Shown here piece by piece: positions 14,624 to 28,005 of a stretch of 32,000 nucleotides of DNA; the stretch's first letter is position 1, and every line of letters begins with the position of its first letter. The DNA comes from Edaphobacter aggregans (GTDB taxonomy: Bacteria; Acidobacteriota; Terriglobia; Terriglobales; Acidobacteriaceae), in assembly GCF_003945235.1 (NCBI RefSeq), contig NZ_RSDW01000001.1:4770001-4802000 (forward strand), in the 5' to 3' direction. A model generated the notes under the pieces. It did not search any database, had not been told where the DNA came from, and saw only the letters and a list, made by a program, of their open reading frames with translations. Position numbers and translations under genes: made by a program.

Positions 14624-15016
14624 ATGGGTCGGGGAAGGGAACCGTGCCATCGAGATCAGCCGTCGAATCTCCGAGCAACGAAACACGACGAAGCAACGTT
14701 CTCCGAGGTCGTCCGGCTGATAGCCGCCTCCCGTGAGAGGGCCGTCAATACCGAGTTGATTGATCTCTACCGGCAGGTCGGCGCAACCATCAGCCGCAAG
14801 ATCAAGGCGGCAGAATGGGGAGATGGGGTCGTCGAACGGCTCGCTGCCTATATTGCGAAGACGCAGCCTGGCTGACGTGGTTTTACCAAGACTAACTTGT
14901 TCCGCATGAGGCAGTTCTAGGAGACTTACCAAGGCGACAAAAAAGTCGCACCACTGGTGCGACAATTGCCGGGGTCGCATCACCTCATCATCCTGAGAGA
15001 GCAAACGTTCGGATGA
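14624..15016 (+). pseudogene. DUF1016/YhcG-type nuclease, N-terminal fragment with two in-frame stops and truncation
   Basis: One reading frame gives MGRGREP...ATFSEVVRLIAASRERAVNTELIDLYRQVGATISRKIKAAEWGDGVVERLAAYIAKTQPG*RGFTKTNLFRMRQF*ETYQGDKKVAPLVRQLPGSHHLIILREQTFG*. This matches the conserved N-terminal pattern of DUF1016 proteins (compare the intact paralogue at 16194-17252). TGA at 14873-14875 and TAG at 14918-14920 interrupt it, and everything after about codon 130 is missing. Confidence 0.7.
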
Positions 15017-15042
15017 ACTGAGAGAGCAAACGTTCGGATGAA
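14993..15042. repeat. perfect 25-bp tandem duplication (ctgagagagcaaacgttcggatgaa x2)
   Basis: Read directly from the sequence: 14993-15017 and 15018-15042 are identical. The repeat sits exactly where homology to DUF1016 ends and the AT-rich integrase upstream region begins. Confidence 0.95.
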
Positions 15043-15180
15043 CGTAAATTCTGTCTGGATTTTATGAGAATAATTCAGAGCAATGGCGTGTCGCTCGCGT
15101 CTATTGTTGCGATTCTAACCCTTTTATAATGAGCGTATATTACCTACGATAGTGCCGCTTGTCAGGGGTAAAATCATTTC

Positions 15181-16117
15181 ATGACGAGCGAGCTCATTTT
15201 GGCGCCTGTACCACCTGAAAACAGGGAAGGGGAGCCCCTGACCCTCACCCCGGCCCAGACTGTGCTGCGCAAGATGGTCCTCGACACCGTACCGTCGCCG
15301 CACTCCAAGCGCAACTACGGGAAAGCCCTCGACGACCTCTTCGCCTTCTGTGCCAGCCGACCTCTCTCCCGGTCCTTATTAATGGAGTGGCAGGCGGGCA
15401 TGGAGCCACTCTCGCCCTCCACTATAAATGTCCGGCTCTCGGCGGTGCGGAAGTCGGTGGGCGAGGCCAGGCGGAACAACATGATCGGATCGGAGGAGGC
15501 GGCCAGCCTGACCGACATCCCCAACATCCGGCAGAAGGGAACCCGGCTGGGGAACTGGCTGACCCGCGAGCAGGCCAAGGAGCTGCTGGCCGTCCCCGAC
15601 CGCTCGACGCTCAAGGGCAAACGCGACTACGTCATCCTGGCGCTTCTTGTTGGCTGCGCCCTGAGGCGGAACGAACTGGCCGAGCTTGACGTCGCGACCA
15701 TCCAACAAAGGGAGGGGCGCTGGGTCCTGGCCGACCTGGAGGGCAAAGGCCGCCGCATCCGCACCGTTGCTGTCCCGATCTGGGTCCAAGCAGGGCATCA
15801 ACGCGTGGATGACCGCGGCCGGCATCGAAGACGGACGGCTGTTGCGGTCGGTTTCGAAGAGCGGGAAGGTCAATCGCGACACCTTGAGCGACTGGGCGGT
15901 CTGGTCGGTAGTTGAACAGTCATCCAAGCAAATCGGAATCGAACGCTTCGGTGCCCACGACCTCCGCCGTACCTGCGCCAAACTCTGCCGCAAGAATGGC
16001 GGGGATCTGGAGCAGATCAAGTTCCTACTGGGACACTCCTCCATCCAGACGACCGAGCGGTACCTGGGATCGGAGCAGGATATCGAGATCGCGGTGAACG
16101 ACAACCTGGGGCTGTAG
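15181..16117 (+). pseudogene. tyrosine recombinase/integrase with a single-base frameshift
   Basis: Two ORFs (15181..15915 and 15686..16117) join into one integrase if the C at 15787 is skipped: ...GRRIRTVAVPIWV|KQGINAWMTAAGIEDGRLL.... All catalytic motifs are intact: Arg in GCALRRNEL, HxxR in AHDLRRT, and His/Tyr in LLGHSSIQTTERY. Confidence 0.85.
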
Positions 16118-16193
16118 TGGAGAAGGAGATTCGCTCTGAATCTGGGGACCTTCATCCTCTATACGAGCAGATAGGATGAGGAAGAGAGGTGCG

Positions 16194-17252
16194 ATGGCAA
16201 AGGATTTACGCAAGTTGGTCGAAGCGGACGAAGGCGCGTCAGAGCTCCTCCGTAGCCTTCGCGAACTCATCCAAGGTGCTCGGCAGAGGGCGATTCGGGC
16301 AGTCGATGTCGTTCAGGTGCAGACCTGCTGGGAGATCGGCCGGCATATCGTAGAGTTTGAGCAAGGCGGCCTCGCTCGGGCGGAATACGGAACGCGGCTG
16401 CTGCAGACTTTAGCCTCGTCGCTGGCAGCCGAGTTCGGAAGAGGTTTTGACGCCTCGAATCTTCGCTACATGCGGCTCTTCTATCAGGTCTTTCCAATTC
16501 GTGACGCATTGCGTCATGAATTGAGTTGGACCCATTACCGCACCCTCCTCCGGGTTGAAAGCGAATCCGCACGGCAATGGTATATGAACGAAGCTGCCAG
16601 CCAGGGATGGACAACCCGCGCCTTGGAGCGGCAGATCAACACTCTGTACTATGAGCGGCTCCTTAGTAGCTACGACCGTCCGGCCGTGGAGTCGGAGGCT
16701 AAAAGCAATGTAGCGCCTCTGCAGACGCCTCGCGATTTCGTGCGCGACCCGGTCATGCTCGAATTCCTCGGTCTGCCTGGGGCCGGCAAGCTGCTCGAGG
16801 CGGATCTCGAACGGGCGTTGCTCGATAATCTACAGGCATTTCTACTAGAGCTGGGTAGAGGCTTCGCGTTCGTGGCTCGACAGTACCGCATCAGTTCCGA
16901 ATCCAAGGATTTTTACATAGACCTGATCTTTTATAACTACCTGCTCAAGTGCTTCGTGCTCTTCGACCTGAAGTCAGGCGAGCTAACCCACCAAGATATC
17001 GGGCAGATGGACATGTACGTTCGCATGGTCGACGATTTGAAGCGGGCGCCTGACGACAACCCAACTGTGGGGATCATTCTTTGTACCGATAAGGATGCGT
17101 CGGTTGTCCGCTATTCAGTGCTGCACGAGAACGAACAAATATTCGCCAGCAGATACAAACTCGTCCTTCCATCTGAAGAGGAGTTGAGGGCAGAGCTAGC
17201 TCGAGAACGTAGTGAACTCGCAAAACGAGTCAAACCTTACACTGAGGACTAG
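16194..17252 (+). CDS. DUF1016/YhcG family PD-(D/E)xK nuclease
   Basis: The ORF track gives 16176..17252. ATG 16194, preceded by AGAGG, is my preferred start; 16176 is also possible. The N-terminal pattern is ...GRGFDASNLRYMRLFYQVF...LSWTHYRTLL...WYMNEAASQGWTTRALERQI. The C-terminal nuclease core is FAFVARQYRISSESKDFYIDLIFYNYLLKCFVLFDLKSGELTHQDIGQMDMY, with D...D-x-K. Confidence 0.85.
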   Translation: MAKDLRKLVEADEGASELLRSLRELIQGARQRAIRAVDVVQVQTCWEIGRHIVEFEQGGLARAEYGTRLLQTLASSLAAEFGRGFDASNLRYMRLFYQVFPIRDALRHELSWTHYRTLLRVESESARQWYMNEAASQGWTTRALERQINTLYYERLLSSYDRPAVESEAKSNVAPLQTPRDFVRDPVMLEFLGLPGAGKLLEADLERALLDNLQAFLLELGRGFAFVARQYRISSESKDFYIDLIFYNYLLKCFVLFDLKSGELTHQDIGQMDMYVRMVDDLKRAPDDNPTVGIILCTDKDASVVRYSVLHENEQIFASRYKLVLPSEEELRAELARERSELAKRVKPYTED

Positions 17253-17337: not shown

Positions 17338-18603
17338 GTGGTCAAGCCAATCGTCAAACCAGTTATTCCAAGTGATCTCCAATCAAGAATAGAGATTCCC
17401 GAAACGTTGATCCGCGACTTCGTCTCGACCTTAAATCCGAGCGAGAGTGCCGACGTGCTTCAGTTGTTTGTGGATGCCAAGACGCTTGCGCTTTATTGTG
17501 AGTGCCATGTCTTCGCCAGCAAACTTGTGCCTAATTCAACTATCGACGTTCCATTAGATCCGGAGGAGCAAGCTGAATATAGGGCAAACCGAGAGGTTGT
17601 TGCGGACGCGGCGGCCTTTAAGGCGATGAAAGAGGATGCTCGTGAGCGTCGCAGTTTTAGCAATATAGTCACTGAGTTTACGAAAGAATTCGATGAAGAA
17701 ACTCCATTGAAGATCATCGGCGGTCAGCATCGTTTCGAATCGATTCGCGAGGCTTTAGCGAATGGCATCGACGAAATACATGGCATCAAGGTTTATTTCG
17801 GCCTGACACAGGAACAACGTCTAGATGCGCAGCTTATCTCGAATACGGTAATCGCGGTTCCCACTGATTTGTACGATCGCATGCAAGAGACGATGCGCGG
17901 CCCACAGTTAAGAAATTGGTGTCAGAAGGTCGGGCTTTTGGACAGCGATAAAGACTTTTCTGAAAAGCGACAACGGGGAGGGCAAATCACCGTAAGCGCT
18001 GCTCGAACATTCATCCTCAACTATTATCGCGGGGAGGCTGACGCAAAATCTCCCTTTGAGCAGATTGACACGTCACCGAAATTGTCGAAGAGCGGAAGCG
18101 ACGATGCTGAATGGGACAAGCTTCGCGCAACCGGTAAAGCATGGAAGGACGCCAAGCTAGAAGTCGCAGGTCGAGAATTTGCAGCGTTAGTCAAAGCGCA
18201 GAGACAAGCCTTTGAGAACAAGAAATCTGTCCCCATCGATTCTCGCGAAAAAGCTATGAACTATGCTGTTCTATCCGCTTGGGCGTATGTTGCAGGAGTC
18301 CTCCAAGGGGCAAACAATATTGTTAGAGCTGACCGACACTACGCATTGAAAGATCAGGCGGGACGCGACCCGCTAAATGCGCCCGAACTTGCGAAAGGCA
18401 AGCACACGACCGATCCCGACAATTATCGAGGGCTCGGCTATCGCACGGATGCGAAAGAGCGTGGTCGACTGGTCGAGTTGTTCTATCTACAGGCGGAAAG
18501 TGGCAAAGGGATCACGAAACCACTGATTGAATTGGCGATTAAGAAATACCACGCAAAGCTTGCGAACCTCGACGTGCAGAACGCCGAGAAGAAGGTTGTC
18601 TAA
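17338..18603 (+). CDS. ParB/sulfiredoxin-fold protein of the DndB / DGQHR-like type (motif GGQHR) with a long helical C-terminal region
   Basis: A 421-aa ORF starting at GTG 17338, 5 nt after GGGAG; there is no ATG for more than 90 codons. The core RRSFSNIVTEFTKEFDEETPLKIIGGQHRFESIREALANG matches the ParB N-terminal / DndB 'DGQHR' signature with D replaced by G. The remainder is Lys/Glu-rich and looks helical. Confidence 0.6.
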   Translation: MVKPIVKPVIPSDLQSRIEIPETLIRDFVSTLNPSESADVLQLFVDAKTLALYCECHVFASKLVPNSTIDVPLDPEEQAEYRANREVVADAAAFKAMKEDARERRSFSNIVTEFTKEFDEETPLKIIGGQHRFESIREALANGIDEIHGIKVYFGLTQEQRLDAQLISNTVIAVPTDLYDRMQETMRGPQLRNWCQKVGLLDSDKDFSEKRQRGGQITVSAARTFILNYYRGEADAKSPFEQIDTSPKLSKSGSDDAEWDKLRATGKAWKDAKLEVAGREFAALVKAQRQAFENKKSVPIDSREKAMNYAVLSAWAYVAGVLQGANNIVRADRHYALKDQAGRDPLNAPELAKGKHTTDPDNYRGLGYRTDAKERGRLVELFYLQAESGKGITKPLIELAIKKYHAKLANLDVQNAEKKVV

Positions 18604-19148
18604 TGGCGGCGTTGCCAGAATTCGCAGCCGGCCTATGGGAAGAAGCGAAGCGATTTCTTGAAAAGGCAGAGGAAGACGGACCTTCAGACGGTGCGATTGC
18701 GTTCGTCCACGCCGCTCTCATGCTTGGCTTCGCCTCCTTTGAAGCCCACGTAAACGCGATGGCCGATGATTTTCTCACGACATCGTCTCTCAATCCGCAC
18801 GAGCGAGGGCTCTTGGGCGAACATATCGTCGAGCTTGTCGATGGCGAGTTTCAAGTTAAGGAAGTCCTCAAGGTTCAACGCCTAGAAGACAGGGTACTGT
18901 TCCTATGTAGGAGATTCTCGAAATCGCCGATTGATAGATCCTCGAGTTATTGGGGAGAATTTATGGCGGCTGCCAGACTGCGAAACCGGCTGACGCATCC
19001 TAAGCCGGGAGCACTTGTAATCGAGTTGGAGGAAGTACGCCGGGCGCTGACCGCGATAATCGAACTTCTCAACGTCATGTGCCTAAGCCTCTATCGGAAG
19101 AAGCTGCCTACCCATGGGCGAGGCCTGTCGTCGAAACGAAGTTTCTAG
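18603..19148 (+). CDS. HEPN-domain protein (putative RNase), R-x4-H motif RNRLTH
   Basis: A 181-aa ORF whose ATG overlaps the upstream stop (TAATG at 18601-18605). The sequence looks all-helical. The canonical HEPN R-[ND]-x3-H motif (AAARLRNRLTHPKP, residues 127-132) is encoded at 18981-18998. Confidence 0.6.
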   Translation: MAALPEFAAGLWEEAKRFLEKAEEDGPSDGAIAFVHAALMLGFASFEAHVNAMADDFLTTSSLNPHERGLLGEHIVELVDGEFQVKEVLKVQRLEDRVLFLCRRFSKSPIDRSSSYWGEFMAAARLRNRLTHPKPGALVIELEEVRRALTAIIELLNVMCLSLYRKKLPTHGRGLSSKRSF

Positions 19149-19201
19149 CGATTCGCACCGTTATTTGGTGGGTGATCGCAAATAGAGAGGTTCCAAATAA
19201 C

Positions 19202-19858
19202 ATGGGTCGGGAGTTCTCAATGACAGACGCAATACAGGCCGACCTTTTACGCGCTCAACAGATGCATCAGATAATTTCGGATACCTTGGCCGGAAACTAC
19301 GACGCAGACACACGAAGCACCCTTTTCGCAGGGTTTATGTCGATTTGTCTCTGTCATCATGAGGCTATCCTTTCTTTGCTAACGAACGATAGGTTGACCG
19401 CTTCTGCCTTGGCCTTAATGAGGCCCCTAGTGGAAGCGGGATGCCGTGGTTTGTTCGTCAAGTTCGAGGCAACGGAGGAAGAAGTTGAGATCGTCAGAAC
19501 TGGCGGCGAACCGTATCCCACTTTCCGCAAATTGATTGAGGTTCTCGATAACCGCTTCGGCACCGATAAATTGTTCGGTCAATACGGAGACATGTGGAAA
19601 CTACTAAACGATTTCACGCATACCGGAATAGAGCAACTCTCCAATCGATTCGATGAGAACGGCTCGATCGGATCACATCACAGCGAAGCGACAATCTGCG
19701 AACTGATCAACAGCTCCACATCCACCATGACGCGCATCGCAATTCCTTTTCTCGGTTCGCAAAAGAGCCCAGAAGCGGCAACCATAATCAATGACGCTTA
19801 TGTCGGTCTATATCCAATCCCCGATCGATCACCAGCTACCTCAACACCAAACCGTTAA
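19202..19858 (+). CDS. hypothetical helical protein (possible degenerate HEPN/AbiV-like fold)
   Basis: The ORF track gives 19079..19858. That N-terminus overlaps the HEPN gene, so I prefer ATG 19202 (AGAGAGG upstream) or ATG 19220 (GGGAG upstream). The motifs LALMRPLVEAGCRGLF and WKLLNDFTHTGIEQL resemble the conserved helices of Abi-type HEPN-like proteins but lack the Arg. Confidence 0.5.
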   Translation: MGREFSMTDAIQADLLRAQQMHQIISDTLAGNYDADTRSTLFAGFMSICLCHHEAILSLLTNDRLTASALALMRPLVEAGCRGLFVKFEATEEEVEIVRTGGEPYPTFRKLIEVLDNRFGTDKLFGQYGDMWKLLNDFTHTGIEQLSNRFDENGSIGSHHSEATICELINSSTSTMTRIAIPFLGSQKSPEAATIINDAYVGLYPIPDRSPATSTPNR

Positions 19859-20145
19859 ATCCCAAAATAACTTGAGTCTTGCCTGGCTTATGTCACAGCA
19901 AAGATAGCTCTGGAACAGTAGCCAGAATAATTATGAGAACACGCCTCAGCCTGTAGCTCTGATCGCTAAGTGGCGTAGTTTTTCAGCGGTATTTGACGTA
20001 GCCTCTAAGATTTGACGAACAATGTGGACGGTCGAGGCGTCGGCTCGACCGAAATCAAAGATGCTCGGCGCAGGGTAACTATTTGATTGCGCGCGGATAT
20101 TGATCAAAAGTTCTGTCTGGCTCTTTGCGAGCGAAAAGGTAACAG

Positions 20146-20188
20146 TACGCCAAATAATTCTGAAACATTACGCCAGATAATTCTGAAA
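20146..20188. repeat. two 20-nt direct repeats (tacgccaAataattctgaaa / tacgccaGataattctgaaa) offset by 23 nt
   Basis: Read directly from the sequence: 20146-20165 and 20169-20188 differ at one position. They lie inside the ORF-free gap. Confidence 0.9.
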
Positions 20189-20946
20189 GCAACAAACATA
20201 GTGTTTGGCTCCGTTTCTTTTGGTTGTGTCCGCTGTCTGCGGTACATGCTTGCCCGGAGGGTGTGCCGTCGCGACCCACTCCCTCGGCGACTGGACGGAA
20301 TCTGGGGAAGGGGACCCAAACTTGCTTTGGGGCAGGAGTCCGCACCTTGCAGAGGTGCGCAGCGGATTCTGGGAAGGAGAGCGTGCGTCCGAAGGGCGGG
20401 GGTGTCTTGAGCGTGGCACGCTGAACGCAGATAGAAAGGCAAACCGGAAGGGAGCCGTCTTGTTCAACGGGCGTTACCTCATGGCGCGAGTAGCAAAAGC
20501 CAGGTCAGAATCTAGAAGAGTCAATCCCAATGCAACAGAGAAGAATGACAAAGGGAATCGAAGCAGCGATGGTATCGCTCGGCCGGTCCATCTCCTCGTC
20601 TTCTCCATAGTTCTATGTACGCGAAGCGAACGCGATCTTTGGGCTCATGACTCCAATGTCTGTGTGGTCGGCAAACAGGAAGCAACGCGCCCGTACCAAG
20701 AGGATTAGTCGCGAAATTGGTTCAAGTCCCAACTTCCGTGTAGCCGTCATACGGCCAGAACGCCGTCGATAAGTGCAGTGGCGATTTACCCCTCGTCGAA
20801 AATCGACATCGTTGGGAGGGGATTTCGATCCGATCGCTCGATTGAAATCGGTGGTCAATTAATTCTTTGCTGTAAGATCAAGTTCAATTGGTCGGGTGAG
20901 CAGGAAAGTGGGCCGGATGTTCAGTGTGTATCGGAGGGTAACATTT

Positions 20947-21264
20947 ATGCAAAACTTTGATCTGCAACTGGAAGGCATTTCGGAAGCCGACTTGGAGAAG
21001 GTATTGAAAGATGCGCGGCTGTCGCCAGACGCATATAAAGTCAATACACCCAGTCGAAGTACCGGCAACACAATTGTCGACATTATGCTCGAGCTGTCTA
21101 AGATCGATCTCAACGCACTTTCGGTTGTTATCGGCTATCTGATGGGAACTGGTGTGGCGCTGTTTTATATGGAAGGTGTCCGCAAGAAGATCGGGTCCGT
21201 TTCTGATGCCCACAAATTGCTAAAGAAGCTTGAAAAACTAAATCAGGCCGACGAGGATGAATGA
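20947..21264 (+). CDS. small single-pass membrane protein, hypothetical (architecture reminiscent of EACC1-type 'effector-associated constant component')
   Basis: The ORF track gives 20896..21264. I moved the start to ATG 20947, which follows GGAGGG. The 105-aa protein has an acidic N-domain (MQNFDLQLEGISEADLEKVLKDARL...), one hydrophobic helix (LNALSVVIGYLMGTGVALFYM) and a charged tail. Its stop overlaps the next gene's start (ATGA at 21261-21264). Confidence 0.55.
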   Translation: MQNFDLQLEGISEADLEKVLKDARLSPDAYKVNTPSRSTGNTIVDIMLELSKIDLNALSVVIGYLMGTGVALFYMEGVRKKIGSVSDAHKLLKKLEKLNQADEDE

Positions 21265-22616
21265 GGTTTTCTACCCAATCTCTTTCACTCACAACACCTC
21301 CGATTAGCCAATCGTTTGTGGCCTTTGTCGATCGAAAGACGTACCCGCCTGTACGTCCCAATCAAATTCTTGAAGCAGCTGTGGCCTCCGTCGAATCGAC
21401 GCTGTCTGCGATCCGCTCCGGCATCTGGCCGCGCGACGTTCCGTTCCCGCATATCTTCGTTGTTTCGACCATTTACAGAGATTCGTGGGCGGAGCCCAAG
21501 GAGTTGCTGGTATTCCACGACGAGGGAGCGCAAGACATTGCCGTTTCCACCGCGGAGGCCATCAACTTCCCCTCCAGGCAGAGCGCGAGCTTCCCTACTT
21601 TCCTATTCATGGCGGAACAGCTAGTGGCACAAGACCGTGCGGATATTGCAATTTTACTGCTCCGTCGACTCTTTCCCTTGAATGGCCCAAGCCACCCAAT
21701 CTTTTCAAACCCGGACACCACTCCGTGGCGCCAATTTATAGGCGAAGAATGCCAATTTGAACTGCACCCTCCCGCAAAAGGGTTCGCGGGGGTATTATTG
21801 CACTCCAATAGGGAGGTTCAGTTCCAGTCCGTGGGCCGCATCATCATCCTTGCCCATGAGTTGGGACATTACCTCGCCAGCCTCCCTGAAGCGGAGAAAA
21901 TCCTCGTGAAGCTGAAAGTCCCTTCTGACGTTTTGCAGGATCATGAGGCATCCGCCGATCTAATCGGTGTGGTTCTCGCCGTCGGGGCGCTTTCTCGCTC
22001 CGTCGATTTTCGGCAGCCCGGTGCAATGACATGGCTTGTGGCGAAGGCTAACTTATTGCTCCAAATTCATCATGCATTTGTCGAAGTTCGCCGGATGACT
22101 ATGAAGGTGATCGGTCTCAAACCGTCCCCCGAACTGGGCAATCGCGCGAAGCTCGTATCCAGGGAATTGGCCGATCCCGACACGGTACGGAGTGTTTTTC
22201 GGCTTGGTGGCAGCCGCGCCAAGGTGATTGAGGAAACACTTGCTCATCATCAGAAGTATGTGAGTATCGTGGTAAGTTCCATTCTTCAATCCGCATCCGT
22301 AATGGTCGAGTCGATTGTTGAAGCCCGGACGATTGTGAATCCCCCCGGTGCTTCCGCGAACCGGCGAAACTCGGACGACGAACCAGACCATCAAGCAGTG
22401 TTGCAGGTCGTGCGCAACGCGCTGGGAGATGACATTTTCCGAGTTTTGAGTGTTCACTCCAATCAAGCTCCGGGTAACTGGAGCGAGCCTCACCGGCTGG
22501 CGGATGGGCAGAATCTGGACCTGTGGGGACAGCGCTCTGTCGGCATGAAAGCATTGCAGCTCACCAACGGGATCTTGCTAGATGTGAGCGACTGGCGCTT
22601 GGAGCGCGCCTGGTAA
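21261..22616 (+). CDS. HExxH zinc metallopeptidase-like protein (possibly ImmA/IrrE-like core)
   Basis: A 451-aa ORF. HELGH (IIILAHELGHYL) is encoded at 21855-21869. It is followed about 27 residues later by DHEASADLIG, which resembles the E-x-x-A-[ND] third-ligand helix of COG2856-type peptidases. There is no signal peptide, and I could not identify the rest of the protein. Confidence 0.6.
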   Translation: MRFSTQSLSLTTPPISQSFVAFVDRKTYPPVRPNQILEAAVASVESTLSAIRSGIWPRDVPFPHIFVVSTIYRDSWAEPKELLVFHDEGAQDIAVSTAEAINFPSRQSASFPTFLFMAEQLVAQDRADIAILLLRRLFPLNGPSHPIFSNPDTTPWRQFIGEECQFELHPPAKGFAGVLLHSNREVQFQSVGRIIILAHELGHYLASLPEAEKILVKLKVPSDVLQDHEASADLIGVVLAVGALSRSVDFRQPGAMTWLVAKANLLLQIHHAFVEVRRMTMKVIGLKPSPELGNRAKLVSRELADPDTVRSVFRLGGSRAKVIEETLAHHQKYVSIVVSSILQSASVMVESIVEARTIVNPPGASANRRNSDDEPDHQAVLQVVRNALGDDIFRVLSVHSNQAPGNWSEPHRLADGQNLDLWGQRSVGMKALQLTNGILLDVSDWRLERAW

Positions 22617-22755: not shown

Positions 22756-23682
22756 ATGAAGGAGAAGGTACGATTTATAGGTTTGGATGTCCATGCCGAG
22801 ACCATCGCCGTAGCGATAGCCGAACCGGATGGTGAAGTACGGAGTCTGGGAACGATTCCGAACCGTAGCGAGTCGCTCCGCAAGCTGGTTAGGAAGCTTG
22901 GTCCAGCAGAGAAGTTGAGAGCCTGTTATGAGGCAGGACCGACGGGCTACGTGGTGTATTGGCAACTGACAGAACTGGGTGTACCGTGCGAGGTGGTAGC
23001 GCCTACTCTGGTACCGGTTAAAGCGGGTGATCGAGTAAAGACGGATCGGCGAGATGCGGAGAAGTTGGCACGCTGCTACCGATCTGGAGATCTGACAGCG
23101 GTATGGGTTCCGGACGAAGGTTCCGAGGCCTTACGCGATCTCGTGCGTGCCCGCGAAGCAGCCAAACAGGATCAGATGCGAGCGCGGCATCGGTTGAGCA
23201 AGTTTCTTCTTCGCTCCGGCCAGCGTCCACCAACCGGAGTTCGACCATGGACACGCCCCTATCTGATCTGGATCGCGCAGCTACGTTTCACACAGATCGC
23301 CCAGGAATCCACGCGACAGGATTACCTGCACGAGGTCGAGCACATGCGGGAACGGGTAGCGCGTCTGGAGCAAGCCATCACGGAAGCGGTGAAGCTGGCC
23401 TCCCCCGCGTTGCAGCAAGTCATTAACGATCTGCAGGCACTGCGCGGTATCGCGGATATCTCAGCTGTAACCATTGCGACCGAGCTGGGCCAGGTATCCC
23501 GTTTTCACAGTGCCCGGCAACTGATGGGCTATTGCGGTGCTGTGCCCAGCGAAGACTCCAGTGGCAAGCGAACCAGACGCGGTGGCATCACTAAAACCGG
23601 CAACGCGCATTTGCGACGAATCGTTGTCGAAGCAGCCTGGAGCTGTCGGACTGCACTCAAATCCCGGAATTTCGGATTTTGA
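22756..23682 (+). pseudogene. IS110-family DEDD transposase, 3'-truncated by transposon insertion
   Basis: The sequence MKEKVRFIGLDVHAETIAVAI...CYEAGPTGY...VKTDRRDAEKLA...ALRGIADISAVTIATELG...GITKTGNAHLRRIVVEAAWS is typical IS110. Homology stops after codon 296 (23643), and the last 12 codons (CRTALKSRNFGF*) are read from the transposon's terminal repeat. The usual C-terminal segment after the AAW motif is missing. Confidence 0.85.
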
Positions 23683-23747
23683 TCTCATTTTCTGCACTCA
23701 AATCCCGGAATTCAAGACACTCTATGTACTCTAATCCCGGACGAAAG
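23644..23747. repeat. transposon left (tniQ-proximal) end with three transposase-binding-type repeats
   Basis: The repeats are ctgcactcaaatcccggaatttcgg (23651-23675), ctgcactcaaatcccggaattcaag (23692-23716) and gtactctaatcccggacgaaag (23726-23747), all in the same orientation. Confidence 0.8.
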
Positions 23748-24787
23748 AACCTGCCCCGGAACGGTGAAGATTGTGAACGACTGCGCACGTGTTGATTGAG
23801 TGCGGAGGCGAGACGTCGACGCAAAGCAGCTGGCCAGCGCTGGCTTGAGGTCTCGATCAAGCCTGCCTCCCGGTGCGAAAGAAGCGCTAGAACGCGGAGC
23901 CAGAGAACGCAACCATTTCGAAGTCTGTTTTGTTTTCCTCTTGGTACGGAGCCCGGAAGTGCATCCATGATGAGTGATCCGATGATTGTAAGAATCTCGG
24001 TTCTGAAAGCGAAATGCAGATTCCGGGGATCTGTGGATTGGATGGACAGCTCGTGGCTCGGGTACCAGGCGAGGAGCTGGAGAAGGTCTTCTACGAAGCA
24101 ACGAAGCTGTGTCCCAGTGGCTGCTCCCAGCAATGCAGCGTCAGGATTGGCGGCGCGCAGAGCTGCACGATAGATCTGTTCGACGAAGAGTTGCGCTCCG
24201 GCAATCTGCCGCTGACGGGAGCTTGAAGTGGTGAAAGTCAGTTTTGCTCCGCAGCTCCAGCAGAGGACTGGCGCGACGGCGGGAGACGAGCCGAATGGTA
24301 GCGGGTTGTCTTCGCCACACGTAGGACAACCGTGTCGTAGCGGGCTCTTGTGGATATGACATCGCAGCAGGGCGGGGAAGGCCCACTCCCAACGGACGTG
24401 CACATAGGCTTGAAGCGAGATGCAGGGTGGACAAAAGGCATAGCCCGTCCGCAGTCTACGAAGCCGCTGGGATCGATCGGAGACGCCCCAACGCAGGAGA
24501 AGCGCACGTTCCGATTGCGGCAAACGCTTCCGGAGATCAAGTCGACCAAGGCTGCTTACAGACGTTCTAGAGAATGTTGCCATAGCGTTCAAGAACGCGA
24601 GCGGGAGGCCCCAGTCGAGCGAACTAAGACTTGGGAGATCTGAATGGCGACATTGGAACCCGATCATGAGTTCTTCAGGTGATACGCAGTTTGCATGAGC
24701 GATGCGGAGTACCCATGACGAAAATAGCTCGTTTGGGAGCGGTCTCGGAGCAAAGGGCAGTTGAGATGGCGCGGATGCCGTTTTCAT
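23657..24787 (-). CDS. tniQ: TniQ family transposition target-selection protein
   Basis: A 376-aa ORF. The N-terminal TniQ domain is PLPNELFSSWVLRIAHANCVSPEEL. Cys clusters follow (FCPPCIS...CPTCGEDN...CWSCG). Its start overlaps the tniB stop (ATGA). The last ~30 codons run through the terminal repeats. Confidence 0.85.
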   Translation of the reverse strand: MKTASAPSQLPFAPRPLPNELFSSWVLRIAHANCVSPEELMIGFQCRHSDLPSLSSLDWGLPLAFLNAMATFSRTSVSSLGRLDLRKRLPQSERALLLRWGVSDRSQRLRRLRTGYAFCPPCISLQAYVHVRWEWAFPALLRCHIHKSPLRHGCPTCGEDNPLPFGSSPAVAPVLCWSCGAKLTFTTSSSRQRQIAGAQLFVEQIYRAALRAANPDAALLGAATGTQLRCFVEDLLQLLAWYPSHELSIQSTDPRNLHFAFRTEILTIIGSLIMDALPGSVPRGKQNRLRNGCVLWLRVLALLSHREAGLIETSSQRWPAALRRRLASALNQHVRSRSQSSPFRGRFFRPGLEYIECLEFRDLSAENEIKIRNSGI

Positions 24788-25698
24788 CGTGCGGAGACGC
24801 GCCGGTTACGGCGGTCAGCAATCGAGACTAGAGATCCTGTGACTAGATCGTCTTTGAGTAGGCTAAGGCTGATGTGCTCCTGCCCGCTGTGAATCGCTTC
24901 TGTCGCCGCTGTTTCGATTAGCCGACAGATGCGCACAAGCACTCCTTCACTGAGACTTAGAATTCGCTGATGTACTTTGGGATCGCGGAACTCGGATGGT
25001 AGCCGCAGTGGAAGTATGGACTCAAAACTTAGAAGCAACTGCTGAAAGCTGGAATCGTTCTCCCAGGCTGGCAGTTCCGCCGCCTCGAATCGATCGGCAA
25101 GTTGCTGGTCAGTCATGAGCGCTTGCTTCGCTTCGTGAGTTCCCGCACAGACCAATGGCAGTCGCAGATCGTTGGCGAGAAAGCGGATCGAGTTGAGCAG
25201 TATTCGCTGTTCGCGATAGGTGCCGGCGAGAACCGAATGGATCTCGTCGATCACCAGTAGCCGCACTTCAAGTTGACGCGCCAGTGCGCGAATGCGGTGG
25301 CGTAAGGTTGTCACGCTTGTGCCGTGAGTGAAGATCCCGCCCATCGCCGCCAGGATCTCTTCGTAGAGATCACGTTCGCTTGGTGAGGGAGGCATCTGGA
25401 TCGAGACCACAGGAAGTCGGGTTCTTCCAAGCTTTTTGTCGAAGTGAGTTCGATTGTCGCGCAAGAACTTCTGGATGATGCGAGTCTTGCCCATACCAGT
25501 CGAGCCGTAGAGGACGAGGCACGGCATACGGTCGCGTGGAGGGTAGTCGACCAAATCCATCAAGCGTTCCAGAATACGTTCGGCACGAGGATATTGAATC
25601 CAGCGCTCCTGACGTAGCCAATGAATACGTTCAGTATCTGACAGCAGGGCCGCTTCGCGGCAAGGAGGTTGGAGGTGCCCCAGTTCGCTGACGGTCAT
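24784..25698 (-). CDS. tniB: TniB AAA+ ATPase (TnsC-like transposition regulator)
   Basis: The ORF track gives 24784..25710. I prefer ATG 25698 (MTVSELGHLQPP...), which lies 5 nt after GGGAG and just past the tniA stop. The protein carries Walker A (LYGSTGMGKT), Walker B (LLVIDEIH) and the N-terminal ERIHWLRQERWIQYPRA typical of TniB. Confidence 0.85.
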   Translation of the reverse strand: MTVSELGHLQPPCREAALLSDTERIHWLRQERWIQYPRAERILERLMDLVDYPPRDRMPCLVLYGSTGMGKTRIIQKFLRDNRTHFDKKLGRTRLPVVSIQMPPSPSERDLYEEILAAMGGIFTHGTSVTTLRHRIRALARQLEVRLLVIDEIHSVLAGTYREQRILLNSIRFLANDLRLPLVCAGTHEAKQALMTDQQLADRFEAAELPAWENDSSFQQLLLSFESILPLRLPSEFRDPKVHQRILSLSEGVLVRICRLIETAATEAIHSGQEHISLSLLKDDLVTGSLVSIADRRNRRVSAR

Positions 25699-25700
25699 TC

Positions 25701-27338
25701 TTACTCCCAAATCTCGACCGGAAAAGGTTTGATTTCGGTGGGACGAGCTTCGCTTCTTCGAGGCTCGAAGGAGACCGGAGAGGGTTCTGCTGTCGAGGGT
25801 AATTTCGCTTGCCGGCGGCGCTGTTTGGCTAGCGAACCAGCCTGCCGAACAAGCTGTCGCTGCTCCAGGATGTTCGCGAAGATGGCCTCTTCCGTGTTCA
25901 TCCGTCGCCCGCTTTCTCGTGCTTGCTTATTGGCCGACTCTATCTCCCAAAGCGCGATTGGAGGCTGCCGCAGATCGGCGTATGGAACGGGCCAGTGCCG
26001 TCCGTTCGGGTCTTGCACATAGATTCGCGACAAATTCCGTGGGTCGTACTTAACCAACAGCGGATCCTTCAACCGTCCGGCCCATGGGCTGAGCACATTG
26101 TCCCAATAGCGGATGTTGTAAAAATGAATGCCGTCTCTACGAATCTGTCTTGGGACCGCGGGCAGAAAGTTGAGAAAGAACTCCGTTTCGTCGAGCGGGT
26201 CCCGCAGCGACGACGACTTCGTTTGTTCCACCTCCGCTTGCCATGCCGCGAGAGGAGTCGTGCCGAGAGCGGAATGAGTTGAGAGATGGTAGACGCCAGC
26301 GATCTGAAGCGCCAGCCACCGCTCGAACTCTGGTAGCGTCAACGTTGCCCGAGCCTCCGACGCATAAGAACCCTTCTCGACGACATTGGAGAACGTCGTG
26401 CCTGGCAAGAGATGGACTGCCCCCATCGTCGTCCCAATCAACCGCTCGATGTGGCCTCCGAAGTGCGGCCGCCCAGGCGGACGGTGCTCCAGACGGATGC
26501 CATACTCCTGGCACCCCCGAACCAACGCTTCGGCATAAAACTCCTTGGCGTTGTCGACGTGAATCGTTCGCGGGAGGCCATGGACAGGCCATTCGAGTGT
26601 CTGGAGCTCGCGGTCGGCCAACCAACACGTCTTCGGGAGAACAGCTTGGGACAGCGCTAAAGAAACAGATATCGTCGAAGGCGACCAGAGAGAAACGTGA
26701 AAGCCCGCAACCATTCGTGTCCGCACATCGATCGCAAGCGTAAGCCACGGACGCCCGATCGGGAGCCGCTTGTGTTGGTCGACCACGATGATGTCCACCG
26801 GTGTATGGTCGATCTGCAAAAGTTCCATCGGGTGTTCGGGCTGCAAGGTTGAGATCGCAACGGGCCCTAGCAGTTCTCGGGCCTTCTTGCCACCCTCGCG
26901 CTTTGCGGTCGCCAACCGAAGGTCTAGCGCCTCAACCCGGCATACTACGGTGCGATAGTTCGGAGGTGGCATTCGTTGTTCGGCGAAGCGGCGACGAACC
27001 TCGAGCATAAGTGCCGACAGCCGCGGCCGTTCCGGCTTCAAATAAAACTCATGGATGCACGCGCTCAGCAATTGCTCGCGGTCCGCGCCAAGAAGCGGTA
27101 CTTTGGATTCGTGGCCCCGCTTGCCTGGAAGTAAAGACGAGGTTTGGGACCGTTGGCGGTAGCGCCTGAGCAAGTCGTAAACGACGCTCCGTCCTAGGCC
27201 GAGTTCCCGTGCGGCCTCTCCGACACGTTGGGCGCCGGGCCTTGATTGAGCGGCCAACGGGCCGATCACCGACTCGCGCTTCAAAGCCACGAGCCAGTCC
27301 GCTTCCCCCGCGGCTTCCAAGTTGCGCCACTTTTGCAT
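25701..27338 (-). CDS. tniA: TniA DDE transposase (TnsB/MuA-like)
   Basis: A 545-aa ORF with an N-terminal HTH (GEAARELGLGRSVVYDLLRRY). The DDE triad is LQIDHTPVD, TIHVDNAKEF and, 36 residues later, GGHIERL (D-x35-E spacing). Confidence 0.9.
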   Translation of the reverse strand: MQKWRNLEAAGEADWLVALKRESVIGPLAAQSRPGAQRVGEAARELGLGRSVVYDLLRRYRQRSQTSSLLPGKRGHESKVPLLGADREQLLSACIHEFYLKPERPRLSALMLEVRRRFAEQRMPPPNYRTVVCRVEALDLRLATAKREGGKKARELLGPVAISTLQPEHPMELLQIDHTPVDIIVVDQHKRLPIGRPWLTLAIDVRTRMVAGFHVSLWSPSTISVSLALSQAVLPKTCWLADRELQTLEWPVHGLPRTIHVDNAKEFYAEALVRGCQEYGIRLEHRPPGRPHFGGHIERLIGTTMGAVHLLPGTTFSNVVEKGSYASEARATLTLPEFERWLALQIAGVYHLSTHSALGTTPLAAWQAEVEQTKSSSLRDPLDETEFFLNFLPAVPRQIRRDGIHFYNIRYWDNVLSPWAGRLKDPLLVKYDPRNLSRIYVQDPNGRHWPVPYADLRQPPIALWEIESANKQARESGRRMNTEEAIFANILEQRQLVRQAGSLAKQRRRQAKLPSTAEPSPVSFEPRRSEARPTEIKPFPVEIWE

Positions 27339-27485
27339 TCAAATCCCGGACAAACTTTCGCCCGAACTTCGTCCGGGATTTGAGTGCAACATTCCGGGAT
27401 TTCAATGCCGTAAAACTGCAGTGAATTATCGGAAAACGATTGATTACAAAAGGCCGATATTCCGGGATTTGAGTGCAGCGTGACA
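27334..27485. repeat. transposon right (tniA-proximal) end with four copies of the same motif
   Basis: Three copies are inverted relative to the left end: gtccgggatttgagtgcaac (27371-27390), attccgggatttcaatgccg (27391-27410) and ccgatattccgggatttgagtgcagcgtgaca (27454-27485). One copy has the opposite orientation: tgcattcaaatcccggacaaa (27334-27354), which overlaps the tniA start codon. Confidence 0.8.
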
Positions 27486-28005
27486 GTTGGGCGAACCGAC
27501 GATGGCTGGCCGATGGTCCGGCGACACGCGGACTGCAATCATGTCCTTCTCGATGTACTCACCGAAATGAATGCCAGCATCGAAGCCGTCCGCGACGATG
27601 TCCCGCCGGCTGTCATCCGTTGTTACGTCGAGTACGATCTCTGGATATTCCTTGTGCAACCTGCCCAACTTTGGCGCGAGGACAGATGACACTGCGAGAC
27701 GCGGGAGTAGTAAACGCAAACGTCCCGCTGCTCTGTGCGTCTGGCCGGATATCTGGTCGAGCGTTTCCTCGACTTCGGTGAGTGCGGGTTTCAGGCGAGC
27801 GAGAAGTCGCTCTCCGGCTTCGGTCAGCGCAACACTCCTGGTGGTACGCGCAAGCAAACGGACGCCCACTTCTTCTTCAAGCGCCCGCATGGCGTGACTC
27901 ACGGCTGAAGGCGAAACGCCTTGGCGCTTCGCAGCTCGCGTAAAGCTACGTTCTTCGGCAATGACAAGGAACGTGGCGAGAGATCTGAGATCGCTAGGCC
28001 AGCAT
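27486..28005 (-). pseudogene. LysR-type transcriptional regulator, 5' frameshift and 3' truncation by the transposon
   Basis: The translation is DLRSLATFLVIAEERSFTRAAKRQGVSPSAVSHAMRALEEEVGVRLLARTTRSVALTEAGERLL...RLRLLLP...EYPEIVLDVTTDD...IAVRVSPDHRPAIVGSPN. It then reads into the transposon end (CHAALKSRNIGLL*). Only about 173 of the roughly 300 expected codons remain. The only ATG (rc 28003-28005) gives M-L-A-stop and is out of frame by one base (extra base at 27996). Confidence 0.8.

Follow-up and report, generated by a model that had tools for sequence, protein, structure and literature searches.

Gene organization and conservation of the pair

The window analyzed here is a stretch of 32,000 nucleotides (nt) of the Edaphobacter aggregans contig NZ_RSDW01000001.1 (positions 4,770,001 to 4,802,000 of the forward strand). 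It contains two adjacent genes, which encode a small protein of 105 amino acids (aa) and a predicted zinc metallopeptidase of 451 aa and together make up a rare two-gene cassette that is horizontally mobile. Both open reading frames (ORFs), including the overlap of the first stop codon with the second start codon, lie exactly where the initial annotation of this DNA had put them (Table 1). Neither protein of the window has a significant match in Pfam, NCBIfam, PHROG, or PADLOC scans.

Among 12 independent loci that have enough sequence (L001-006, L007, L008, L009/010, L011, L012, L013, L015, L016, L017, L018, and the window), a homolog of the small gene is located directly 5' of the peptidase gene and on the same strand in all 12. 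At the junction, the two genes overlap by up to 35 nt or lie up to 70 nt apart, with the 4-nt overlap present in six loci (window, L008, L011, L009/10, L016, and L018). The ratio of nonsynonymous to synonymous substitution (dN/dS) lies at 0.23-0.31 in the small gene and at 0.28-0.31 in the peptidase gene, which indicates purifying selection on both. Pairwise identities of the small and the large protein are tightly correlated (r = 0.92), and none of 5000 permutations in a Mantel test gave a value as high. Given the strict pairing, this correlation, and dN/dS of about 0.3, the two genes are a co-inherited and co-evolving functional unit. By the same evidence both ORFs are real genes and the small one is certainly translated; conservation of the small ORF and its co-occurrence with the peptidase gene, the failure of which would have spoken against the initial annotation, are thus well supported.

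An all-versus-all comparison of the ORFs of these loci revealed no third gene common to them, since only the two genes recur. Downstream genes of 84-87 aa in L001, L016, and L017 were considered as a third conserved component and rejected, being mutually non-homologous.

DNA similarity to the closest relatives, L009 and L010, sets in abruptly ~115 nt upstream of the start codon of the small gene, as is expected of a mobile cassette. No convincing sigma-70 promoter, other promoter, or terminator was seen in the leader or the window, and the window has no tRNA or Rfam elements.

Table 1. Features of the gene pair in the window; residue numbers refer to the respective protein
Feature	Position	Strand	Remarks
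Conserved 5' leader of the cassette	20832..20946	+	near-identical DNA to L009/L010
Shine-Dalgarno sequence GGAGG	20933-20937	+	9 nt upstream of the small-gene ATG
Small partner gene, 105 aa	20947..21264	+	ATG 20947, TGA 21262-21264
Loop of the small protein, residues 35-41 (PSRSTGN)	21049..21069	+	near-invariant G40; candidate cleavage region
Hydrophobic glycine-rich segment of the small protein, residues 55-75, LNALSVVIGYLMGTGVALFYM	21109..21171	+	KD19 1.76
ATGA stop/start overlap of the two genes	21261..21264	+	putative translational coupling
Gene of the predicted cytoplasmic zincin-type metallopeptidase, 451 aa	21261..22616	+	ATG at 21261
HDEGxxD motif, residues 86-92	21516..21536	+	end of the three-stranded sheet; D87 and D92 invariant, H86 nearly so
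HELGH motif, residues 199-203	21855..21869	+	predicted zinc-binding and catalytic residues H199/E200/H203; invariant in 14 of 14 members
EASAD on the "glutamate helix"	21945..21959	+	predicted third zinc ligand E229 and invariant D233, from the alignment with CapP E129 and D133
C-terminal ~200 residues of the peptidase	22023..22613	+	predicted long helical bundle (255-395) and four-stranded beta unit (424-449)

Active site of the peptidase

Judging from the family alignment, the signature of the 451-aa protein is that of a gluzincin-type metallopeptidase, namely HExxH and a glutamate 26 residues downstream. Both motifs named in the initial annotation, HELGH (residues 199-203) and DHEASAD (residues 227-233), are confirmed, with the E229 codon at nt 21945-21947. 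All 14 aligned members, even those at 19% identity, share residues P63, D87, D92, H199, E200, H203, E229, D233, and G317. The HDEGxxD motif, which contributes two of these positions, may belong to the active site or line the substrate cleft.

Only one Pfam family, Peptidase_M78, is matched repeatedly in this set, by three of the 14 full-length members and four of 10 catalytic cores, always over the stretch from HExxH to the glutamate. The 451-aa protein of the window itself has no Pfam M78 match. When PDB sequences were searched with the core profile, the best match was CapP (7T5T), with a non-significant E-value of 0.58; CapP is an ImmA/IrrE-type protease that regulates cyclic oligonucleotide-based antiphage signaling systems (CBASS). 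In this alignment HELGH...HEASADLIG of the present family stands opposite HELGH...IEAQADLFA of CapP.

For the profile-profile comparison by hhalign, the reference set was made up of nine plasmid-borne CapP-type peptidases annotated as ImmA/IrrE (L020-L028). The match probability rises from 72% with the full-length family to 84% with residues 54-250 and 91% with the core, with 48-49 columns aligned and E-values from 3e-5 to 9e-7, and 30 column-shuffled controls reach at most 2.9%. Residues H199, E200, H203, and E229 are paired with H96, E97, H100, and E129 of CapP, respectively, and D233 is placed opposite D133; the spacing from H203 to E229 is 26 residues versus 29 in CapP. In the crystal structure of CapP, H96, H100, and E129 are the zinc ligands and E97 is the catalytic glutamate (10.1101/2022.04.27.489752). 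Together, the recurrent weak M78 matches, CapP as the best PDB sequence, and the hhalign probabilities of 72-91% bear out the ImmA/IrrE (M78)-like core suggested in the initial annotation. Thus, the active site is probably M78-like and the protein probably a distant offshoot of the M78 clan. According to both the curated threshold and the architecture, the 451-aa protein itself falls outside the M78 family.

Fold and remaining regions of the peptidase

The AlphaFold model of the 451-aa protein is confident, with a mean predicted local distance difference test (pLDDT) of 83 and a predicted template modeling score of 0.88. It begins with a three-stranded sheet at residues 64-87 (strands 64-68, 76-78, and 83-87), which is separated by a helical insertion of ~100 residues from the active-site helix (187-206), followed by the glutamate helix (228-244). 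As for localization, there is neither a signal peptide nor a transmembrane segment, the maximum of the Kyte-Doolittle hydropathy over 19 residues (KD19) being 1.59, in agreement with the cytoplasmic peptidase described initially.

The rest of the protein, about 250 residues of which had been considered unassignable, is still so according to both structural and profile searches. Foldseek of the model against PDB and BFVD yielded no match with E<0.001, TM-scores being ~0.1, and hence no structural neighbor in either collection. In hhalign against the CapP-like set the N-terminal sheet matches nothing and the C-terminal half has a probability of 0.3%, and the full-length peptidase profile returned nothing useful from PDB sequences. 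According to sequence and model, the protein would be a cytoplasmic zinc endopeptidase with a divergent M78 core set in a novel, mostly helical scaffold, and its C-terminal ~200 residues are a candidate sensor or regulatory region.

Properties of the small protein

The small-protein alignment covers 13 family members over their whole length. Its layout comprises an acidic N-terminal alpha+beta region, a conserved hydrophobic GYxxGxG core, and a variable charged tail. Nearly invariant positions are L6, L20, G40, L50, L58, G63, Y64, G67, G69, G77, and A88, with G63 present in every member, and the core motif reads L-N-x-L-S-L-L-I-G-Y-x-x-G-x-G. The C-terminal tail varies in both length and charge, from acidic in the window copy to rich in lysine in L016-L018.

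The initial annotation had assigned a single transmembrane helix to this protein. This holds for the window copy and its subclade only as far as a 21-residue uncharged stretch exists there, whose KD19 value barely exceeds the rule of thumb of 1.6. The stretch is not conserved, however: in eight of the 13 members a K, R, or D breaks it after 11-13 residues (e.g., GYAIGKGFSIDK and GYAVGRDLRLYR), and an uncharged run of at least 19 residues occurs in just five. The AlphaFold model, of low confidence (pLDDT 48), places a helix and a beta-hairpin across the hydrophobic segment. Because of these breaks and the modeled helix and hairpin, a constitutive single-pass membrane anchor does not appear to be a property of the family. 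The small protein rather looks like an alpha+beta protein with a buried glycine-rich hydrophobic helix-hairpin.

No helix-turn-helix (HTH) domain was found by Pfam in any of the 13 members, and hhalign against nine Xre (CapH-like) partners gives a probability of 0.5%, so the partner indeed lacks an Xre HTH, as had been noted at the outset. The small-protein profile returned nothing useful from PDB sequences.

Distribution and genomic neighborhoods

Members of the family are extremely rare, with just three relatives of the large protein returned from 5.8 billion clustered proteins and 17 representatives from an exhaustive profile search of 1.84 billion representative proteins. Scans of genome-contig and metagenome-contig collections with the family alignments added nothing new.

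In the window, the pair is flanked by a probable integrase islet of ~5 kb on the left and by an IS110/Tn cluster on the right. The islet contains an integrase fragment (15181-15915), a YhcG/PDC-S02 nuclease, two unknown ORFs, and a DUF6988/PDC-S52 protein, and the right side carries a truncated IS110 transposase that adjoins a tniQ-tniB-tniA transposon. In L016 (3060-4756 and 5825-9389), on an 8.7-Mb genome contig, the pair is directly downstream of a tyrosine integrase, and an AbiEi/AbiEii system lies ~3 kb away. With a TrwC relaxase and a ParB_N protein nearby, this setting resembles an integrative and conjugative element (ICE). The pair is found beside ParE, ParA, and an ADP-ribosylglycohydrolase in L018, beside an antitoxin (Unstab_antitox) in L007, and among ordinary metabolic genes in L001. 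The conflict-type context proposed in the initial annotation holds up, the conserved unit being found in mobile or defense-type settings in the window, L007, L016, and L018.

Several further observations concern the flanks in the window. The nuclease gene of the left islet (16176-17252) encodes a YhcG-like PDDEXK protein (DUF1016_N and YhcG_C domains) that matches the PADLOC candidate PDC-S02 with an E-value of 8e-143. It is followed at 17338-19858 by unknown ORFs of 421 aa and 181 aa, with a stop/start overlap at 18603, and by the gene of the DUF6988/PDC-S52 protein. The 90% clusters of the 421-aa and DUF6988 proteins have members in both with a longest contig of 3509 nt, which hints, short of proof, that these two genes travel as a cassette of their own, independent of the peptidase pair. 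Tandem repeats of 25 nt and 23 nt are present at 14993-15042 and 20141-20186 (AACAGTACGCCAAATAATTCTGA), respectively, the latter with weaker copies at 19914 and 15915, and the 25-nt repeats at 15039-15063 and 20101-20125 are 76% alike. The repeats near 15040 and 20100-20186 may be ends or arm sites of the islet, in which the candidate defense genes lie. The ~1 kb between it and the cassette (19858-20832) has no ORF with a Pfam match and no Rfam element or tRNA; its GC skew is locally high.

To the right, an IS110-family transposase ORF (22756-23682, 308 aa) runs into the left end of the transposon, and its C-terminal domain match stops before the end of the Pfam model. On the far side of the transposon, a LysR fragment, in which HTH_1 and the substrate domain are both partial, lies on the minus strand (27444-27902). 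The IS110 ORF cut at the transposon end and the LysR fragment beyond it suggest nested insertions. The transposon itself is a compact Tn5053/Tn7-like tniQ-tniB-tniA element at ~23643-27486 with 38-nt inverted repeats (23643-23680 and 27449-27486); copies of TGCACTCAAATCCCGGA are found at 23652, 23693, and 23725, and inverted copies at 27372, 27393, and 27461. The pair was considered as cargo of this transposon and rejected, as the element ends at these positions and is empty of cargo.

Relation to M78 systems and other protease modules

To our knowledge, M78 proteases are known almost only for cutting Xre-type repressors, whereby prophages, ICEs, DNA-repair regulons, or CBASS are switched on, and in every characterized M78 system the small protein encoded directly 5' of the peptidase is its substrate. 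The present pair resembles the ImmR/ImmA, DdrO/IrrE, and CapH/CapP systems in having HExxH with a downstream E-x-x-A-(N/D) glutamate helix, in the cytoplasmic location of the peptidase, in residing on mobile elements with defense-gene neighbors, and in a partner gene of ~100-125 aa directly 5' of the peptidase gene, often with a 4-nt overlap. All nine canonical CapH/CapP-type plasmid loci (L020-L028) have an HTH gene of 97-125 aa 5' of the peptidase gene, with junctions of 1-8 nt overlap in four loci (4 nt in two of them) and gaps of 2-10 nt in the other five. CBASS cyclases, DUF3892, TIR, and Fic genes are among the neighbors of these plasmid loci.

In contrast to the M78 systems, in which the partner is an Xre HTH repressor, the small protein here has no HTH, and the peptidase scores below the Pfam M78 threshold. 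A helical insertion of ~100 residues also sets its beta-sheet apart from the active-site helix, and it has neither the HTH-like linker nor the GAF domain found in IrrE and CapP. Finally, the pair has no conserved adjacent operon that could be a regulatory target.

Pepco/Trypco-trypsin and bacterial gasdermin-protease modules are similar in combining a protease with an adjacent small latent effector in conflict islands. Their proteases, however, are serine or cysteine proteases and their effector folds are unrelated. In the part of a recent survey available to us, an M78-type metallopeptidase is not among the ten protease-effector families covered (10.1101/2025.11.14.688446).

The closest analogy of layout is offered by EACC1. 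It was defined as the product of a small 5' gene with a conserved transmembrane-like helix and a central glycine patch, followed by a 3' gene of the caspase superfamily or, in its place, of a cNMP cyclase, and has been reported from 671 organisms (Table 1 in Kaur et al. 2020, PMC7159879). In a later preprint, EACC1 was shown to be a soluble pro-toxin, and a cut by its protease near Asp49 frees a pore-forming C-terminal fragment (Evans et al. 2025, 10.1101/2025.11.14.688446). The same preprint provides the precedent of small proteins, encoded 5' of a protease, that act as cleavage-activated pore formers.

As in EACC1, a non-enzymatic protein of ~105-115 aa is encoded just 5' of the peptidase gene, although the Ktedonobacter genes are separated by a gap of 16 nt and those of the window overlap by 4 nt. 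Both proteins have an acidic N-terminal alpha+beta part and a conserved hydrophobic segment that contains a patch of glycine or other small residues and has similar KD19 values (1.71 in EACC1 and 1.76 here), followed by two predicted strands and a helix, which in the present case are taken from the low-confidence model. By analogy with Asp49 of the Ktedonobacter protein (KrEACC1), the loop at residues 35-41, which lacks predicted regular structure and is modeled at low pLDDT, may be the cleavage region. The differences concern the protease, which is a caspase-fold cysteine protease there and an HExxH zincin here, the lack of any STAND, Avs, or other sensor fusion here, and abundance, with 671 organisms there versus 17 representatives here.

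Proposed function

Strict pairing, equal evolutionary rates, and the lack of a third gene argue that the small protein is a dedicated target or ligand of the peptidase. Since M78 systems place the substrate (ImmR, DdrO, or CapH) at the same 5' position, the 105-aa partner is, by analogy, most likely the dedicated substrate. Two features of this partner favor a protease-gated effector, namely the lack of a DNA-binding domain and a glycine-rich hydrophobic helix-hairpin as the best conserved element. The reading preferred here is therefore a stand-alone conflict module, in which cleavage by an M78-like peptidase turns the co-translated partner into an active small effector that may act on the membrane. 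This preference is tentative and stops somewhat short of calling the module probable; we infer the substrate role of the partner, the cleavage site, the membrane activity, and the trigger.

Under this reading, the C-terminal ~200 residues would probably hold the peptidase off until a signal arrives. Once activated, the peptidase would cleave the partner at a site that probably lies in the conserved S/T-G40 loop or the tail, and so free the hydrophobic C-terminal half of the partner for oligomerization or membrane insertion. The freed fragment would arrest growth, resulting in abortive infection or addiction, by the same logic as in caspase-EACC1, trypsin-Pepco, and protease-gasdermin modules.

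A number of observations weigh against this reading. Regarding the peptidase, the best score against the M78 model (PF06114) is 13.2 bits, with E-values of 0.08-0.16, versus a gathering threshold of 22 bits, and the similarity to M78 spans just ~48 columns. IrrE and CapP are not among the best 50 PDB matches listed by Foldseek, and neither protein of the pair has a recognizable sensor domain. As for the small protein, its model is unreliable at the pLDDT stated above, a membrane role is weakened by a segment that is short and charge-broken in most relatives, and similarity to any known pore former is not detectable. Regarding distribution, tblastn of both proteins against plasmid and phage collections gave zero matches, the family is absent from the viral collection IMG/VR in scans with the family alignments, and the association with defense islands is anecdotal, the loci numbering just 12.

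The comparison with EACC1, which was based on the Pfam EACC1 model and a single sequence, KrEACC1 from the supplement of Evans et al., belongs to the same list. None of the 13 small-protein members matches Pfam EACC1 (PF19953) at E<=10, and the KrEACC1 control matches it at 2e-6. The hhalign probability of the small-protein family against EACC1 is 0.4%, and z-scores of local and global alignments with KrEACC1 relative to shuffles are scattered around zero (-1.5 to 2.4). Based on these three results, homology to EACC1 is not supported. The EACC1-type layout seen in the initial annotation thus stands as far as the small gene 5' of a linked peptidase gene and the hydrophobic segment with its glycine patch are concerned, and EACC1 survives solely as an analogy of layout.

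Alternative explanations

Among the alternatives, a toxin-antitoxin (TA)-like pair fares best, although it is on the whole unlikely. The peptidase would be a growth-arresting toxin that cleaves host proteins, and the small protein its stoichiometric inhibitor, present in excess via translational coupling and lost first under stress or upon loss of the element. A small 5' gene with a 4-nt overlap of a larger 3' gene is the classic layout of type II TA systems, the two genes co-evolve tightly, and TA or Abi genes are among the neighbors (Unstab_antitox in L007, ParE in L018, and AbiE in L016). The variable, charged, and probably disordered tail of the small protein also recalls many antitoxins. 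Xre-COG2856 pairs, in which a small 5' gene likewise overlaps a 3' zinc-peptidase gene and which share the mobile, patchy distribution, have a long history as predicted or presumed TA systems (PMC10538038 and PMC4963859); the DNA-binding HTH of their antitoxin, however, is missing here. More generally, none of the HTH, ribbon-helix-helix, AbrB, or Phd domains usual in type II antitoxins was found by Pfam in the 13 small proteins. Moreover, the small protein is conserved as well as the large one rather than evolving faster, and its best conserved part is the hydrophobic glycine-rich core and not the tail.

A mobile-element switch in the style of ImmR/ImmA appears improbable. Here the small protein would be a non-HTH regulator (a repressor, anti-repressor, or anti-sigma-like factor) that the peptidase inactivates upon DNA damage or another cue, thereby altering transcription of the element. 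The catalytic core and gene layout are indeed those of ImmR-ImmA, DdrO-IrrE, and CapH-CapP, and the position of the L016 pair downstream of an integrase, with TrwC and ParB, recalls immR-immA-int. The window, however, has no integrase closer than a fragment at a distance of 5 kb, which seems to belong to a separate islet. Lysine-rich tails of distant members could bind nucleic acid, but this feature is not conserved, the tail of the window copy being acidic. A DNA-binding domain was not detected by hhalign against the nine Xre partners (the 0.5% given above), and no conserved regulated gene or third component accompanies the pair.

Finally, an EACC1-type single-pass small protein that recruits and activates the peptidase at the membrane as a sensor or anchor is very improbable: the uncharged segment of the window copy (21 residues, KD19 1.76) with its positive C-flank and the conserved GYxxGxG patch, reminiscent of EACC1 as first described with a transmembrane helix and glycine patch (PMC7159879), would fit it, but the segment is broken by K, R, or D in most members, EACC1 homology was tested and not found, and EACC1 has since been shown to be a soluble pro-toxin and not a membrane sensor (10.1101/2025.11.14.688446).

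Implications

The stand-alone conflict module, in which the peptidase activates its partner by cleavage, can be stated in a stronger form. An M78-like zinc protease, released from its customary repressor substrate, would have taken on an unrelated ~105-aa pro-toxin that is cut to a glycine-zipper-like helix-hairpin permeabilizing the membrane, with the unmatched C-terminal region of ~200 residues of the peptidase as a new type of sensor. This would make the pair the first small death effector under metallopeptidase control. This version is doubtful. If true, however, it would represent an independent invention of the EACC1/gasdermin logic in which both the protease and the effector fold differ.

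The rule that death effectors are licensed by proteolysis was recognized recently and is so far established for caspase-like and trypsin-like proteases, and a partner that proves to be a cleavage-activated effector would add a metalloprotease branch to it. An M78-like lineage that keeps the layout and the zinc site but has a partner that does not bind DNA in place of the repressor would also show that this switch protease can be rewired to a new output. In addition, two new folds would be gained, that of the small partner and the confidently modeled peptidase scaffold without a structural neighbor. The extreme rarity of the family limits its general importance, yet the pair is a clean and easily testable two-gene system.

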